Virus record (IMG/VR): IMGVR_UViG_2718217868_000006
Length of the DNA stretch: 18,841 nucleotides
Strand: one strand, 5' to 3'
Source: a virus
Taxonomy: Duplodnaviria > Heunggongvirae > Uroviricota > Caudoviricetes
Part shown: positions 1 to 13,888 of the stretch, one piece after another
Layout of the letters: every line of letters starts with the position of its first letter
How positions within the stretch are numbered: the first letter of the stretch is position 1
Position numbers and translations under genes: made by a program
Notes under the pieces: generated by a model
Database searches by the model: none
What the model saw: only the letters and a program-made list of their open reading frames with translations
What the model was told of the DNA's origin: nothing

Positions 1-585
1 CTATTCGATAATGGGTACTGTTGGCCATTCAATATCCGGTGCAGTTGTTGTATTAACACGGTTCAGCAACACCCGATATTTTTTCCAGGCTTCCAGCAAT
101 GAGGTTTCTTCCTCCGTTGCGATCTCCAGATCTACAGCATCCTGAAGTGGCGCTATATGCTCACTGGCTACCTGCATCAGGCTGTTTTTTGTTTCGTCCG
201 CCTCCCGGATCCGGAACAGTTTTTCTGCTTCCGTATCCTTCACCCAGGCTGTGCCGTTCCACTTCTGATATTCCCCTTCCGGCGATAACCAGGTGACATT
301 TTCCGGTAACGGACCGAGTTCAGAAATAAATAACGCGTCGCCGGAAGCCACGTCATAGACGGTTTTTCCCCGATGATCTTCAACGAGATGCCACGATGCC
401 TCATCACTGTTGAAAACAGCCACAAAGCCAGCCGGAATATCTGGCGGTGCAATATCGGTACTGTTTGCTGGCAGACCTGTATGAGGCGGAATATATGCGT
501 CACCTTCACCAATAAATTCATTAGTTCCGGCCAGCAGATTATAAATTTTTATGGTCCGTGGTTGTTCACTCATTCTGAATGCCAT
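1..585 (-). CDS. tfa: Tail fiber assembly protein (Tfa family)
   Basis: 194-aa ORF, ATG at 585..583, stop at 3..1. Translation recognised as lambdoid tail fiber assembly chaperone; immediately follows a tail-fiber C-terminal ORF with a TAATG stop/start overlap. Confidence 0.8.
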
Positions 586-7199: not shown

Positions 7200-7340
7200 T
7201 CATACTCCTGCTCCTGTCAGTGTTTTGGCGTAATTCTTCAGTATTCGGTAATCGGTCAAAACAGAACCGGGGAAACGATATAAGCGCAGACGCCCCCAGC
7301 GGTGGCGAAGAAGTTCTGCCATATTAAACTCAAACATCAT
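7200..7340 (-). CDS. ylcG: YlcG-like small protein (46 aa)
   Basis: Not on the ORF track (under 60 aa). ATG at 7340 overlaps the rusA stop (ATGA); translation [46 protein letters not shown] matches remembered DLP12 YlcG, between rusA and Q. Confidence 0.6.
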
Positions 7341-7699
7341 TCATTCCCCATTTCGGTGATGGTCAGTTCCAGCCTCCCACCTTTGGTAACAGGCATCTTC
7401 ACAACGCGGTAATCAACGACCTGAGCATCATCCAGCCAGAAACCTGCTTTAGTGAGTGCGTCAAAAGCGGCTTTTTGCAGATTATCCAGGTCACGGCGAC
7501 GGCGATCCGGCATGTGGCACTCAATGCGGATTTTCACAGGCATAGTCAGGCCGATATCCAGCATTGCGTTTTTAATGATTCGGGCGACGTTATCGCGGTA
7601 TGCCTGCCCCTCTGCGCTGACGTGCGTGCGCCCGCGATTATGGCGGTAATAGCGATTATTGCTCGGAGGCCAGGGTAATGTGATGCTGTAGGTATTCAC
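7337..7699 (-). CDS. rusA: Holliday junction resolvase RusA
   Basis: 120-aa ORF, GTG start, near-identical to remembered E. coli RusA ([26 protein letters not shown]…). Confidence 0.9.
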
Positions 7700-7798: not shown

Positions 7799-7875
7799 GT
7801 TGATAGATCCAGTAATGACCTCAGAACTCCATCTGGATTTGTTCAGAACGCTCGGTTGCCGCCGGGCGTTTTTTA
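7799..7875 (+). ncRNA. oop: oop antisense RNA (about 77 nt) overlapping the 3' end of cII
   Basis: + strand sequence GTTGATAGATCCAGTAATGACCTCAGAACTCCATCTGGATTTGTTCAGAACGCTCGGTTGCCGCCGGGCGTTTTTTAT matches remembered lambda oop RNA with its terminator. Candidate po promoter: -35 TTGAGT 7763..7768, -10 CATAAT 7786..7791. Confidence 0.7.
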
Positions 7876-8114
7876 TTGGTGAGAATCGCAGCAACTTGTC
7901 GCGCCAATCGAGCCATGTCGTCGTCAACGACCCCCCATTCAAGAACAGCAAGCAGCATTGAGAACTTTGGAATCCAGTCCCTCTTCCACCTGCTGATCTG
8001 CGACTTATCAACGCCCACAGCTTCCGCTGTCTTCTCAGTTCCAAGCATTGCGATTTTGTTAAGCAACGCACTCTCGATTCGTAGAGCCTCGTTGCGTTTG
8101 TTTGCACGAACCAT
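7821..8114 (-). CDS. cII: Transcriptional activator CII
   Basis: Translation from the ATG at 8114 (MVRANKRNEALRIESALLNKIAMLGTEKTAEAVGVDKSQISRWKRDWIPKFSMLLAVLEWGVVDDDMARLARQVAAILTNKKRPAATERSEQIQMEF, 97 aa) matches remembered lambda CII. The track ORF extends upstream to 8174, but the phage start is 8114. Confidence 0.9.
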   Translation of the reverse strand: MVRANKRNEALRIESALLNKIAMLGTEKTAEAVGVDKSQISRWKRDWIPKFSMLLAVLEWGVVDDDMARLARQVAAILTNKKRPAATERSEQIQMEF

Positions 8115-8233: not shown

Positions 8234-9588
<1,355 letters not shown>

Positions 9589-9941: not shown

Positions 9942-10265
9942 ATGGATGCACAAACACGCCGCCGCGAACGTCGCGCAGAGAAACAGGCTCAATGGAAAGC
10001 AGCAAATCCCCTGTTGGTTGGGGTAAGCGCAAAACCAGTTAACCGCCCTATTCTCTCGCTGAATCGCAAACCGAAATCACGAGTAGAAAGCGCACTGAAT
10101 CCGATAGACCTTACGGTGCTGGCTGAATACCACGAACAGATTGAAAGCAACCTGCAACGTATTGAGCGCAAGAATCATCGAGTTTGGTATAGCAAGCCAA
10201 GTGAGTTCGGTATAACTTGTCAAGGAAGACAAAAGGTTAAAGGGAAATCCATTCCATTGGCATGA
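9942..10265 (+). CDS. N: Antitermination protein N (lambda-like)
   Basis: Translation from the ATG at 9942 begins MDAQTRRRERRAEKQAQWKAANPLL, the arginine-rich boxB-binding motif of lambda N; 107 aa. The track ORF starts upstream at 9864. Confidence 0.9.
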   Translation: MDAQTRRRERRAEKQAQWKAANPLLVGVSAKPVNRPILSLNRKPKSRVESALNPIDLTVLAEYHEQIESNLQRIERKNHRVWYSKPSEFGITCQGRQKVKGKSIPLA

Positions 10266-10273
10266 GGTACGTA

Positions 10274-11143
10274 ATGAAGAAAATTGATTACAAGTCCATA
10301 CCAAAACCAATAGACTCAGCATCAGAGCGAAAAAAACACAAAAAAGAGGCTGAAAAATTAGCAAATTATATCAGTTTTATTAGAAACAATGCTCACGGCG
10401 ATGGCGACAGGAAGTTGCTTTCAGATGCCCGGACCCAAGCGTTCAGCATACTTCGTAAGCAGATGCAATATCGTCTTCATCCAGGCTACATAATTGAAAT
10501 TCGCCCGACTGAAAGACAATTGTTCTTATTAAACTCTGTCTTTGACTTTGTAAACGTAGTTGGAGATCTTATCGACAGGTCTGTAGATAAGGCTCCTGAT
10601 ACAAATAGTTTTCTTCTAACAAATAAAGAATACTTATATGGTAAATTTGGTATAAACGGATGGCAAAAATATGTACGATTCTTACGTGCATTCGTTGATG
10701 CGTATAAAAATTCCGACATGATTTATACATATTTGCCTGGTGGTAATAATTGTACGCTTTCGGCAGACAATAGAATATTCATACCTATACTTGGTCTTGG
10801 GCTGATTAATGCAGTAAATGAAAGAGATGTTATAATTGTTAAGCAGTGGCGAAAGCATGAGGGATATAGATATCTGCCATGCTTTGATATATTAAAAATA
10901 CAGAATAAATTCTATGTAAAAATTAAATATAAAGAAGATGTTTTCTTCCTCAGAAAAAACAAAGATCTTTTACAAGAACTTTCTGGGACAATAGATGTCA
11001 TCGTAGGTTCTAGGTTTATAAAAGAACTGAAAGAAAGCAGGTCTTTCTCTCGTGTAGAGATAAGCGAGTCAGAGTTATGGGGTATATCAAATAATCCTGT
11101 AAACCACGCTCACCAACGAAATCCAAACAAAAAGTGGTCATAA
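10274..11143 (+). CDS. Hypothetical protein, 289 aa, AT-rich; unrecognised gene in the N-to-ea10 slot
   Basis: Long ORF immediately after N (alternative ATG at 10262 overlaps the N stop; ATG at 10274 has a GAGG SD). No family recognised by eye; rich in Lys/Asn/Tyr/Phe. Followed by a strong terminator. Confidence 0.6.
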   Translation: MKKIDYKSIPKPIDSASERKKHKKEAEKLANYISFIRNNAHGDGDRKLLSDARTQAFSILRKQMQYRLHPGYIIEIRPTERQLFLLNSVFDFVNVVGDLIDRSVDKAPDTNSFLLTNKEYLYGKFGINGWQKYVRFLRAFVDAYKNSDMIYTYLPGGNNCTLSADNRIFIPILGLGLINAVNERDVIIVKQWRKHEGYRYLPCFDILKIQNKFYVKIKYKEDVFFLRKNKDLLQELSGTIDVIVGSRFIKELKESRSFSRVEISESELWGISNNPVNHAHQRNPNKKWS

Positions 11144-11166
11144 CCCGCTCAGGCGGGTTTCATTTT
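11143..11166 (+). terminator. Intrinsic terminator after the 289-aa gene
   Basis: ACCCGC-TCAG-GCGGGT hairpin followed by TTCATTTT immediately after the stop codon. Confidence 0.65.
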
Positions 11167-11285
11167 CACGCAAACAACAGAATAAACACTGCACTGTGTA
11201 TTCATTCCAACGAGTGAATACACGGAGCAATGTCGCTCGTAACTAAACAGGAGTCGACTTGTTCTGATTATTGGAAATCTTCTTT

Positions 11286-11311
11286 GCCCTCCAGTATGAG
11301 GGCGATTTTTT
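11286..11311 (+). terminator. Putative intrinsic terminator (tL2-like position)
   Basis: GCCCTC-CAGTAT-GAGGGC hairpin followed by GATTTTTT, upstream of the ea10-like gene. Confidence 0.5.
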
Positions 11312-11331
11312 ATCTGTGAGGATATGAATAG

Positions 11332-11700
11332 ATGTCAAACATCAAAAAATACATCATTGATTACGACTGGAAAGCATCAATAGAAATTGAAATCGACCAT
11401 GACGTAATGACAGAGGAAAAACTTCACCAGATTAATAATTTCTGGTCAGACTCTGAATACCGACTCAATAAACACGGCTCTGTATTAAATGCTGTATTAA
11501 TCATGCTGGCGCAACATGCTCTGCTTATAGCAATTTCAAGCGACTTAAATGCATATGGTGTTGTGTGTGAGTTCGACTGGAATGATGGAAATGGTCAGGA
11601 AGGATGGCCTCCAATGGATGGTAGCGAAGGAATAAGAATTACCGATATCGATACATCAGGAATATTTGATTCAGATGATATGACTATCAAAGCCGCCTGA
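11332..11700 (+). CDS. ea10: Ea10-like early protein (122 aa)
   Basis: 122-aa acidic ORF with SD GAGGA, adjacent to cIII as in lambda. Assignment rests on position and length; the sequence itself is not recalled with certainty. Confidence 0.5.
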   Translation: MSNIKKYIIDYDWKASIEIEIDHDVMTEEKLHQINNFWSDSEYRLNKHGSVLNAVLIMLAQHALLIAISSDLNAYGVVCEFDWNDGNGQEGWPPMDGSEGIRITDIDTSGIFDSDDMTIKAA

Positions 11701-11772
11701 GCGCGGCGTTACCGCATACCAATAACGCTTCACTCGAGGCGTTTTTCGTTATGTATAAATAAGGAGCACACC

Positions 11773-11937
11773 ATGCAATATGCCATTGCAGGGTGGCCTG
11801 TTGCTGGCTGCCCTTCCGAATCTTTACTTGAACGAATCACCCGTAAATTACGTGACGGATGGAAACGCCTTATCGACATACTTAATCAGCCAGGAGTCCC
11901 AAAAAATGGATCAAACACTTATGGCTATCCAGACTAA
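11773..11937 (+). CDS. cIII: CIII (FtsH/HflB inhibitor stabilising CII)
   Basis: Not on the ORF track (54 aa). Translation [54 protein letters not shown] matches remembered lambda CIII; SD AAGGAG upstream. Confidence 0.9.
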   Translation: MQYAIAGWPVAGCPSESLLERITRKLRDGWKRLIDILNQPGVPKNGSNTYGYPD

Positions 11938-12425: not shown

Positions 12426-13211
12426 ATGAGTACAGCACTCGCAACGCTGGCTGGGAAGCTGGCTGAACGCGTCGGCATGGATTCTGTCGACCCACAGGAA
12501 CTGATCACCACTCTTCGCCAGACGGCATTTAAAGGTGATGCCAGCGATGCGCAGTTCATCGCATTGCTGATCGTCGCCAACCAGTACGGCCTTAATCCGT
12601 GGACGAAAGAAATTTACGCCTTCCCTGACAAGCAGAACGGCATCGTTCCGGTGGTGGGCGTTGATGGCTGGTCCCGTATCATCAATGAAAACCAGCAGTT
12701 TGATGGCATGGACTTTGAGCAGGACAATGAATCCTGCACATGCCGGATTTACCGCAAAGACCGCAATCATCCGATCTGCGTTACCGAGTGGATGGATGAA
12801 TGCCGCCGCGAACCATTCAAAACCCGCGAAGGCAGAGAAATCACGGGGCCGTGGCAGTCGCATCCCAAACGGATGTTACGGCATAAAGCCATGATTCAGT
12901 GTGCCCGTCTCGCCTTCGGATTTGCTGGTATCTATGACAAGGATGAAGCCGAGCGCATTGTCGAAAATACCGCATACACTGCAGAACGTCAGCCGGAACG
13001 CGACATCACTCCGGTTAACGATGAAACCATGCAGGAGATTAACACTCTGCTGATTGCCCTGGATAAAACATGGGATGACGACTTATTGCCGCTCTGTTCC
13101 CAGATATTTCGCCGCGACATTCGCGCATCGTCAGAACTGACACAGGCCGAAGCAGTGAAAGCTCTTGGATTCCTGAAACAGAAAGCCACTGAGCAGAAGG
13201 TGGCTGCATGA
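12426..13211 (+). CDS. bet: Bet (Red-beta single-strand annealing recombinase)
   Basis: 261-aa ORF near-identical to remembered lambda Bet ([37 protein letters not shown]…). Confidence 0.95.
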
Positions 13212-13888
13212 CACCGGACATTATCCTGCAGCGTACCGGAATCGACGTGAGAGCTGTCGAACAGGGGGATGATGCGTGGCACAAATTACGGCTCGGCGTC
13301 ATCACCGCTTCAGAAGTTCACAATGTGATAGCAAAACCCCGCTCCGGAAAAAAGTGGCCTGACATGAAAATGTCCTACTTCCACACCCTGCTGGCTGAGG
13401 TTTGCACCGGTGTGGCTCCGGAAGTTAATGCTAAGGCGCTGGCATGGGGAAAACAGTACGAGAACGACGCCAGAACTCTGTTTGAATTCACTTCCGGCGT
13501 GAATGTTACTGAATCCCCGATCATCTAACGCGACGAAAGTATGCGTACCGCCTGCTCTCCCGATGGTTTATGCAGTGACGGCAATGGCCTTGAGCTGAAA
13601 TGCCCGTTTACCTCCCGGGATTTCATGAAGTTCCGGCTCGGTGGTTTCGAGGCCATAAAGTCGGCTTACATGGCCCAGGTGCAGTACAGCATGTGGGTGA
13701 CGCGAAAAGATGCCTGGTACTTTGCCAACTATGACCCGCGTATGAAGCGTGAAGGCCTGCATTATGTCGTGGTTGAGCGGGATGAAAAGTACATGGCGAG
13801 TTTTGACGAGATGGTGCCGGAGTTCATCGAAAAAATGGACGAGGCACTGGCTGAAATTGGTTTTGTATTTGGGGAGCAATGGCGATGA
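13208..13888 (+). pseudogene. exo: exo (lambda Red 5'-3' exonuclease) interrupted by an in-frame ochre codon at 13526..13528
   Basis: A single frame of 226 codons matches lambda Exo throughout ([11 protein letters not shown]…GEQWR), but codon 107 is TAA where lambda has Tyr (…ESPII[15 protein letters not shown]…). The ORF track shows the two halves as 13208..13528 and 13541..13888. Confidence 0.85.

Follow-up and report, generated by a model that had tools for sequence, protein, structure and literature searches.

What is the gene that lies between N and ea10 in IMG/VR virus record IMGVR_UViG_2718217868_000006, and what could its product do? The window, by which we mean the whole stretch of 18,841 nucleotides analysed, represents a defective lambdoid prophage of the imm434 type that sits at ybhC (att-lambda) in E. 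coli, and we call the product of the gene after N protein X. An earlier reading of this DNA, made from the letters only, had pointed to a long accessory gene in this slot, had been unable to place its product in any family and had proposed an exclusion or defence function. We find that X carries the C-terminal peptide of Nun, the textbook example of a phage factor that jams RNA polymerase to block a rival, on a body whose predicted fold resembles TnpB. The interpretation that we prefer, with a probability of roughly 0.5, is that X is a Nun-type RNA polymerase arrest factor with a TnpB-like targeting domain. The putative exclusion or defence role is still the best reading of the locus, given the Nun tail, the nun slot that X occupies in related phages, and relatives located in BREX (bacteriophage exclusion) operons and other defence islands.

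The C-terminal peptide of X and its conservation

10274-11143, + strand: gene X, 289 codons plus stop, placed from the list of open reading frames (ORFs) and the N-termini of homologues
11099-11140, + strand: Nun-type C-terminal peptide, residues 276-289, VNHAHQRNPNKKWS, equal to HK022 Nun 96-109
11098-11210, + strand: mosaic segment of 113 bp, 96% identical in blastn to the HK022 nun 3' end, terminator and downstream DNA

A phmmer search against the PDB shows that the last 14 residues of X are identical to residues 96-109 of HK022 Nun (6ALG chain N). In the work of Kang et al. (eLife 2017), only Nun 87-109, the C-terminal 23 of its 109 residues, is visible in the polymerase complex, important contacts are apparently made by N97, H98, H100, R102, K106, K107 and W108, and a control substitution, N103A, retained 96% activity. 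All of these contact residues are present at the extreme C-terminus of X. Furthermore, V276, N277, H278, A279, H280, R282, K286, K287 and W288 of X are invariant across its homologues. Thus the Nun-contact positions, together with V96 and A99, do not change in proteins of 68, 49, 42 and 36% identity, and the equivalents of Nun 101, 103, 104 and 105 vary. Between lineages the tail codons show synonymous differences, and the DNA beyond the stop codon is unrelated, indicating that selection acts on the peptide and not on the DNA. The tail pattern has one match in the window, where none is expected by chance, and in the AlphaFold model of X the tail is disordered.

The 113-bp segment that X has in common with HK022 starts at the first shared codon, and in HK022 the homology ends at IS903. 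Its four differences are all synonymous and all fall within the 14 shared codons; the 68 nt that follow contain no difference.

GenBank annotation already records the gene and its Nun-like end. Gene CPT_434_48 of phage 434 (OL657226) encodes a protein 96.9% identical to X, labelled 'Nun C-terminal peptide-containing protein', and differs from the gene in the window at 9 synonymous and 9 non-synonymous codons. PHROG 12139, of unknown function, matches X over its full length (E 3e-203), and PHROG 5632, 'Nun-like', matches its last 20 residues. With these records, the Nun-type tail and the TnpB-like fold described below, X can no longer be called unrecognised. Family databases are silent: Pfam and NCBIfam give no match for X, Pfam gives none for any of 28 members of its family, and PADLOC finds no defence model that matches X or eight homologues, save a chance-level Cas3 hit at E 0.04. 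A kinship with D-Ala-D-Ala ligases (phmmer E ~0.08) was rejected as a chance match that does not recur with the family profile. The phage 434 genome announcement does not discuss the gene, and our literature search found no paper on X, nor a relevant one that links BREX with TnpB or with HSP70. Several points appear to be new in the literature searched: how the tail is conserved, the resemblance of the predicted fold to TnpB, the constant place in the operon, the distribution of the tail over two architectures, and the BREX-embedded relatives with a second modular tail.

We scanned IMG/VR for the tail codons and obtained at least 118 matches, representing at least 60 distinct proteins. Among the matches listed, the tail stands at the very C-terminus of every ORF read to its stop, and only two architectures occur: short proteins of 67-123 residues, which like Nun carry arginine-rich motifs, of diverse sequence, and the X family of ~289 residues. 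The remaining matches listed are truncated ORFs or fragments of the short type or of X. A Nun gene comes directly after N in phage PA28. In a Hafnia phage, two short Nun-like genes come after N, and their arginine-rich motifs differ. To our knowledge, the Nun tail has so far been described only on small RNA-binding peptides. Its presence, under selection, on a folded TnpB-like domain suggests a portable arrest effector that is joined to different targeting devices.

Two of the loci with tail-bearing genes display additional features. In the Hafnia phage, Pocitis76 (L019, 2138-3180), a tRNA-Gly gene lies between the repressor region and N, and the N-terminus encoded by one of the Nun-like genes is almost identical to the arginine-rich motif of lambda N (MDAQARRREKRKAKQ). 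At locus L004 an unannotated ORF of 102 residues (11037-11345, + strand) directly follows the X homologue in tandem; it combines an arginine-rich motif, KGRRRALRMQQRR, with the Nun tail, VVNHAHQRRPNKKWS, and has its own terminator behind it.

The genomic position of X is fixed as well. The gene lies directly after an N-like gene in the window, in phage 434 and at loci L004, L129, L145 and L170. In the HK022-like phages L005 and L053, which lack N, carry a repressor of the HK022 type and show 73.5% DNA identity over pL-putL, it follows putL and thus occupies the exact slot of nun. Their homology to HK022 stops after putL, and the region just upstream of nun is not common to both. King and colleagues are said to have placed PNun just upstream of nun, in 2000. 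In every locus examined a terminator stands directly 3' of X, with a sequence that differs among diverged homologues. Homologues of 36-68% identity are of the same length as X, and the close family comprises five clusters in a database of 5.8 billion proteins. The N-X-ea10 stretch was found in 80 of 5,426 complete E. coli genomes and in ~30 IMG/VR contigs. The view of X as a self-contained accessory gene in a variable PL-proximal slot is supported. On one E. coli contig of 72 kb, a predicted protein of 96 residues (P0009) consists of the first 23 residues of Bet and the last 73 of X; since bet lies downstream of X, we attribute it to a rearrangement in that one genome.

X and Nun resemble each other in build, a targeting part plus a tail, and in the tail itself, 14 identical residues that are predicted to be disordered, lie at the extreme C-terminus and include all that are relevant for arrest. 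They also resemble each other in place, at the head of the pL operon with the same terminator behind, and in HK022-like relatives in the nun slot. In contrast, X has no boxB-binding arginine-rich motif, and the matches to PHROG 5632 and 6alg_N cover its last 20-27 residues only. X has 289 residues with a folded domain of ~220, whereas Nun has 109 residues, and a constitutive promoter is not evident for X.

The protein body and its distant relatives

10274-10480, + strand: N-terminal helical hairpin, residues 1-69, helices 16-38 and 43-65 in the AlphaFold model
10481-10933, + strand: core domain, residues 70-220, predicted WED+REC-like lobe of TnpB/Cas12
10934-11047, + strand: long helix, residues 221-258, linker from core to C-terminus in the AlphaFold model (predicted local distance difference test, pLDDT, ~50-60)
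11033-11065, + strand: motif ESRSFSRVEIS, residues 254-264, present in both the Nun-tail and the GGLPSLGKRR-tail subfamilies

The AlphaFold model of X was built from 25 sequences; a run with 5 sequences was poor (pLDDT 50) and was discarded. The model has a mean pLDDT of 78, with values of 80-95 over residues 11-220. In a Foldseek search of the PDB the best match is TnpB (8bf8_A, probability 0.99), and three of the best six matches among the viral models of BFVD are giant-virus proteins named 'Transposase', which we take to be TnpB/Fanzor-like. The modelled core runs through one strand, three helices and a strand-rich part, presumably the WED-REC-WED order of TnpB, and X is thereby predicted to contain the WED plus REC recognition lobe of TnpB/Cas12. 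Likewise, hhalign places X 72-104 on beta1/alpha1 of TnpB ('L-P-x-x-x-Q-x-x-x-L'), in register in both subfamilies. This match is weak, extending over 28-40 columns at E 0.004-0.027, and HMMER finds no TnpB match in the PDB. We conclude that the core is TnpB-like in its predicted fold, and that homology is likely, though unproven.

What makes TnpB a nuclease guided by RNA is missing from the locus. The core is followed only by the helix and the tail, which leaves no room for RuvC or a zinc finger, and none of the 28 family members matches Pfam OrfB_IS605 or OrfB_Zn_ribbon. A search of Rfam gave no guide RNA at X, and the search for conserved RNA structure at the 3' end of the gene yielded only the terminator (-8.5 kcal/mol, with a covariation term of -0.8). 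There is also no intergenic space for a guide RNA, as N abuts the start of X and the terminator abuts its stop. Compared with TnpB and Cas12f (ISDra2 TnpB, 8H1J and 8BF8; RdCas12n, 9UDI), X has an N-terminal motif that aligns in register, but it lacks RuvC, the zinc finger, the catalytic residues and any Pfam OrfB/TnpB match, has no detectable guide RNA and does not lie in a transposon.

TldR and dCas12f-sigma are TnpB-family relatives that were likewise recruited to transcription control. Some TldRs are prophage-encoded in enterobacteria; TldRs still have a RuvC lobe, though mutated and truncated, and work with a guide RNA of ~100 nt that adjoins their gene (PMC10705468). X has neither the RuvC lobe nor the adjacent guide RNA, and it would act on elongating polymerase by a peptide, not by promoter occupancy. 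We do not file X as a member of the TnpB or TldR families. After TldR and dCas12f-sigma, it would be the third and most reduced reuse of TnpB parts in the control of transcription.

Outside the core, the helical hairpin (residues 1-69) is confined to the phage subfamily, that with the Nun tail (alignments A1 and A2). A basic stretch at residues ~15-28 is poorly conserved, being Lys-rich in X and Arg-rich in the homologues at L004 and L170. Within the motif preceding the tail, E254, S255, S257, F258, R260, E262, I263 and S264 are invariant in A1.

Searching 1.8 billion representative proteins with a profile yielded 27 proteins. The distant relatives have 184-473 residues, with a region common to X that corresponds to its residues ~70-226, and they carry the motif 'S..YSRVDF' in the place of X 254-264. 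Their C-terminal peptide is another one, GGLPSLGKRR. Four proteins of this type, 64-84% mutually identical and 17-24% identical to X, are encoded between brxC and pglX, and PADLOC confirms operons in which the gene for the X relative stands in the order brxA-brxB-brxC-X-pglX. This type is rare: a search with alignment A5 found a BREX-type relative in 4 of 185,579 species genomes, all Betaproteobacteria. Other relatives adjoin a DISARM-like gene set, immediately precede a Pycsar pair, belong to the cargo of a P4-like island in Burkholderia, or are found on an element resembling a plasmid or an integrative and conjugative element. Like BREX accessory genes such as BrxU or PARIS, the BREX-type homologues are embedded in a brx operon, between brxC and pglX, whereas X itself lies between N and ea10, outside a BREX locus. 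The BREX-type homologues differ from X in carrying GGLPSLGKRR in place of the Nun tail, and no PADLOC model matches them.

These unusual BREX operons are those of L010 (3128-16867), L007, L011, L012 and L015. Where the contig reaches far enough, at L007, L010 and L011, the locus continues with genes for proteins of 376 and 423 residues without a family match, an HSP70 homologue (610 residues) and a second pglX-like gene; pglZ was not found within the brx stretch covered. The sequence '(V/T)SGGLPSLGKRR', with which the BREX-type relatives P0011-P0049 end, is a second modular C-terminal tail. In IMG/VR the same tail closes small basic phage proteins (L183, L185, L186, L188, L189 and L190), 54-127 residues long, whose N-terminal parts are unrelated, some of them arginine/lysine-rich and some CxxC-like. 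A context check of these small proteins revealed no consistent gene neighbourhood. With their second modular tail, the BREX relatives hint at a still undescribed accessory of BREX, a defence system of poorly understood mechanism.

Proposed mechanism and competing explanations

The tail of Nun threads into the active-site cleft of the elongating polymerase and ties the enzyme to the RNA/DNA hybrid and to DNA, by which translocation is blocked; the short arginine-rich motif of Nun docks on boxB RNA. The WED+REC lobe of TnpB/Cas12 holds structured RNA, the RNA-DNA duplex and adjacent DNA. We propose that residues 276-289 of X would enter the polymerase cleft and block translocation, and that the folded domain of ~220 residues would select, via a nucleic-acid feature, which transcription complexes are struck. 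X would be made together with the phage's own antitermination device, as the second cistron of the pL transcript, behind N or, in HK022-like phages, behind putL, and ahead of the first terminator. Polymerases modified by the phage's own N or put would probably be protected, whereas X would arrest those unmodified complexes, from competing phages or from the host, that its domain recognises. It is documented that put-modified polymerase reads through Nun-dependent stops and that lambda N's C-terminus extends alongside the hybrid inside the catalytic cavity, so that immunity of the phage's own antiterminated complexes is plausible. X would then serve to exclude competing phages, which fits Nun and the tandem arrays of tail-bearing genes. 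As X is present in phage 434, a classic laboratory phage, and the Nun-resistant rpoC mutants beta' R322H, D264G and D329G exist, the idea is directly testable.

When X would be made can be judged from the layout of the locus. The order pL-nutL-N-X-terminator predicts immediate-early expression on infection or induction, and places X on the immediate-early pL transcript, alongside the antitermination device of the phage. A promoter scan of the window found no productive promoter of its own for X, as from the only candidate (10257-10284) transcription would begin downstream of the X start codon. At the homologue loci L004 and L005, scans likewise gave no convincing candidate for a promoter ahead of X. 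PL is under cI repression in a lysogen; the argument of the sequence-only reading for expression of X from PL in that state does not hold, and such expression is doubtful. Lambda SieB and Ral occupy the same N-ea10 interval and are, like X, non-essential accessory genes, but neither has sequence or profile similarity to X (Pfam, NCBIfam, PHROGs). SieB has its own promoter and acts in lysogens.

Several points weigh against targeted arrest by X. Classical Nun-like prophage exclusion is not established, since a promoter for lysogenic expression was not found in the scans. The residues before the shared 14 differ from those of Nun, and H93 and R94, which contact upstream DNA, are both N in X. Conservation of the tail, as read from the aligned sequences, indicates a function but not which one. 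The link to TnpB comes from a structure predicted from 25 sequences and an hhalign match of E 0.004 over 33 columns. Lastly, the relatives end in another tail, and their defence context does not simply carry over to X.

The alternative that survives best, although we consider it unlikely, is that X is an untargeted polymerase poison, which would serve for early host shut-off in lytic growth or as an abortive-infection toxin, the domain having a regulating or sensing role. Nun is reported to bind non-specific elongation complexes with a dissociation constant (Kd) of ~300 nM and to arrest them at high concentration. The place of X in an immediate-early pL unit, with no promoter of its own found, would suit such a poison, as would relatives in defence islands, where abortive-infection effectors are common. 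However, a conserved nucleic-acid-recognition fold of ~220 residues exceeds what a plain poison needs, and among the matches listed every tail-bearing type other than X has RNA-targeting arginine-rich motifs. A weak further argument is that the defective prophage has kept X intact, and counter-selection is not apparent.

It is more doubtful still that the tail is not the working part of the protein. The TnpB-like domain would in that case be a DNA- or RNA-binding regulator of phage development, and the tail would help in docking or stability, or would be left over from recombination at the nun/terminator junction. By its sequence the 113-bp HK022 segment is a typical lambdoid mosaic junction, as a leftover might be, and relatives with the other tail retain the core. 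Yet the peptide is conserved through synonymous change, next to unrelated downstream DNA and in lineages down to 36% identity, and the conserved positions are those needed for Nun activity.

Far less probable is an RNA-guided factor like TldR or dCas12f-sigma, in which a guide RNA would find the target DNA and the polymerase would then be blocked. The core does resemble the WED+REC fold of TnpB/Cas12, and TnpB relatives turned into transcription regulators, some of them prophage-encoded, are described in the literature. The RuvC lobe and zinc finger that hold the guide scaffold, however, are wholly absent from X, whereas TldRs keep them in a mutated, truncated form, and the locus has no non-coding space, no Rfam match and no 3' RNA structure beyond the terminator. 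That X is a phage counter-defence protein, such as a decoy related to the homologues embedded in BREX operons that interferes with a host system, is just as improbable: early genes beside N often handle host defences, as lambda ral does, but BREX lineages with a homologue were found only in Betaproteobacteria (E. coli BREX was not searched for such a component), the Nun tail is exactly what sets the phage subfamily apart, and in HK022-like phages X replaces the exclusion gene nun.

A wider and speculative idea, which we regard as a minority view, is that X and its relatives form a class built of a 'targeting domain plus C-terminal warhead peptide'. A strongly reduced lobe of TnpB origin, which might read a particular RNA, RNA-DNA hybrid or DNA motif, would bring the peptide into a core machine. 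In enterobacterial phages the Nun tail would stall polymerase on chosen transcripts, and GGLPSLGKRR would act analogously in Betaproteobacteria. Were this true, BREX-type immunity would be linked to direct transcription arrest, and a second natural polymerase-plugging (or similar) peptide would be at hand.

Limits of the gene and the surrounding prophage

9942-10265, + strand: lambda-type antiterminator gene N, directly upstream of X and in one transcription unit with it; translation starts MDAQTRRRERRAEKQ
10264-10267, + strand: Shine-Dalgarno sequence GAGG, 6 nt before the ATG at 10274
11142-11169, + strand: intrinsic terminator made of a hairpin (11142-11159) and a T tract, in a position equivalent to that of tL1
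11332-11700, + strand: ea10, downstream flank of X

The frame is open without interruption from 10262 to 11143 (+ strand) and gives 293 residues when counted from the first ATG. The long AT-rich gene of the sequence-only reading is therefore real, but its start at 10262 is an additional in-frame ATG upstream of the likely one at 10274. The latter is favoured by the spacing of GAGG, by the phage 434 annotation and by the N-termini of all homologues, which agree. GAGG overlaps the stop codon TGA of N (10263-10265), and the phage 434 record has an annotated ribosome-binding site at the same position. X has a GC content of 35.1% (30.7% at third codon positions), compared with 48.1% in N, 52.9% in bet and 45.0% in the whole window, and is indeed richer in AT than its lambda-like flanks. 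N and ea10 are those flanks, as had been said. Directly after the X stop codon, the terminator hairpin is GC-rich, with 7 bp, -11.8 kcal/mol and z = -4.3. Its T tract is interrupted (UUUCAUUUUC), and for this reason the terminator, correctly noticed earlier, appears moderate and not strong.

The + strand of the window runs in the leftward (pL) direction, with the gene order cro, cI(434), hex, pL/nutL, N, X, ea10, cIII, kil, gam, bet. In phage 434, and in an E. coli locus identical to this one, N bears the label 'antitermination protein N'. The prophage has several defects. cII stands directly before rusA/ylcG/Q, with O, P and the nin region missing (window 7821-8114 to 7337-7699); exo has an internal stop according to the RefSeq annotation of the identical locus (13208-13888); and the tail-fibre genes are reduced to remnants at 1-1184. 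X, N, cI, gam and bet are intact.

After cI lies a hex-like gene (9184-9588, + strand), labelled 'repressor protection protein' in phage 434. Read from the 434 start, its product has an N-terminus resembling a signal peptide, which is odd for a protein reported to act on RecA-mediated cleavage of repressor; the ORF called by RefSeq is shorter, 9277-9588. Between X and ea10, the spacer (11160-11331) contains a second terminator-like hairpin at 11284-11305 (-12.9 kcal/mol) and a perfect 9-bp inverted repeat, GTGTATTCA...TGAATACAC, at ~11196-11225. The homology to HK022 reaches the first arm of this repeat only and ends at 11210, where IS903 interrupts HK022. At the end of the prophage, a full-length Rfam match to RF02111 (IS009, 221 bits) lies at 44-242 (- strand) in the region of the tail-fibre-assembly gene. 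At 11760-11818 (+ strand), the lambda cIII thermoregulator RNA element RF01804 (88 bits) marks the start of cIII, as expected in a lambda-like early left operon.

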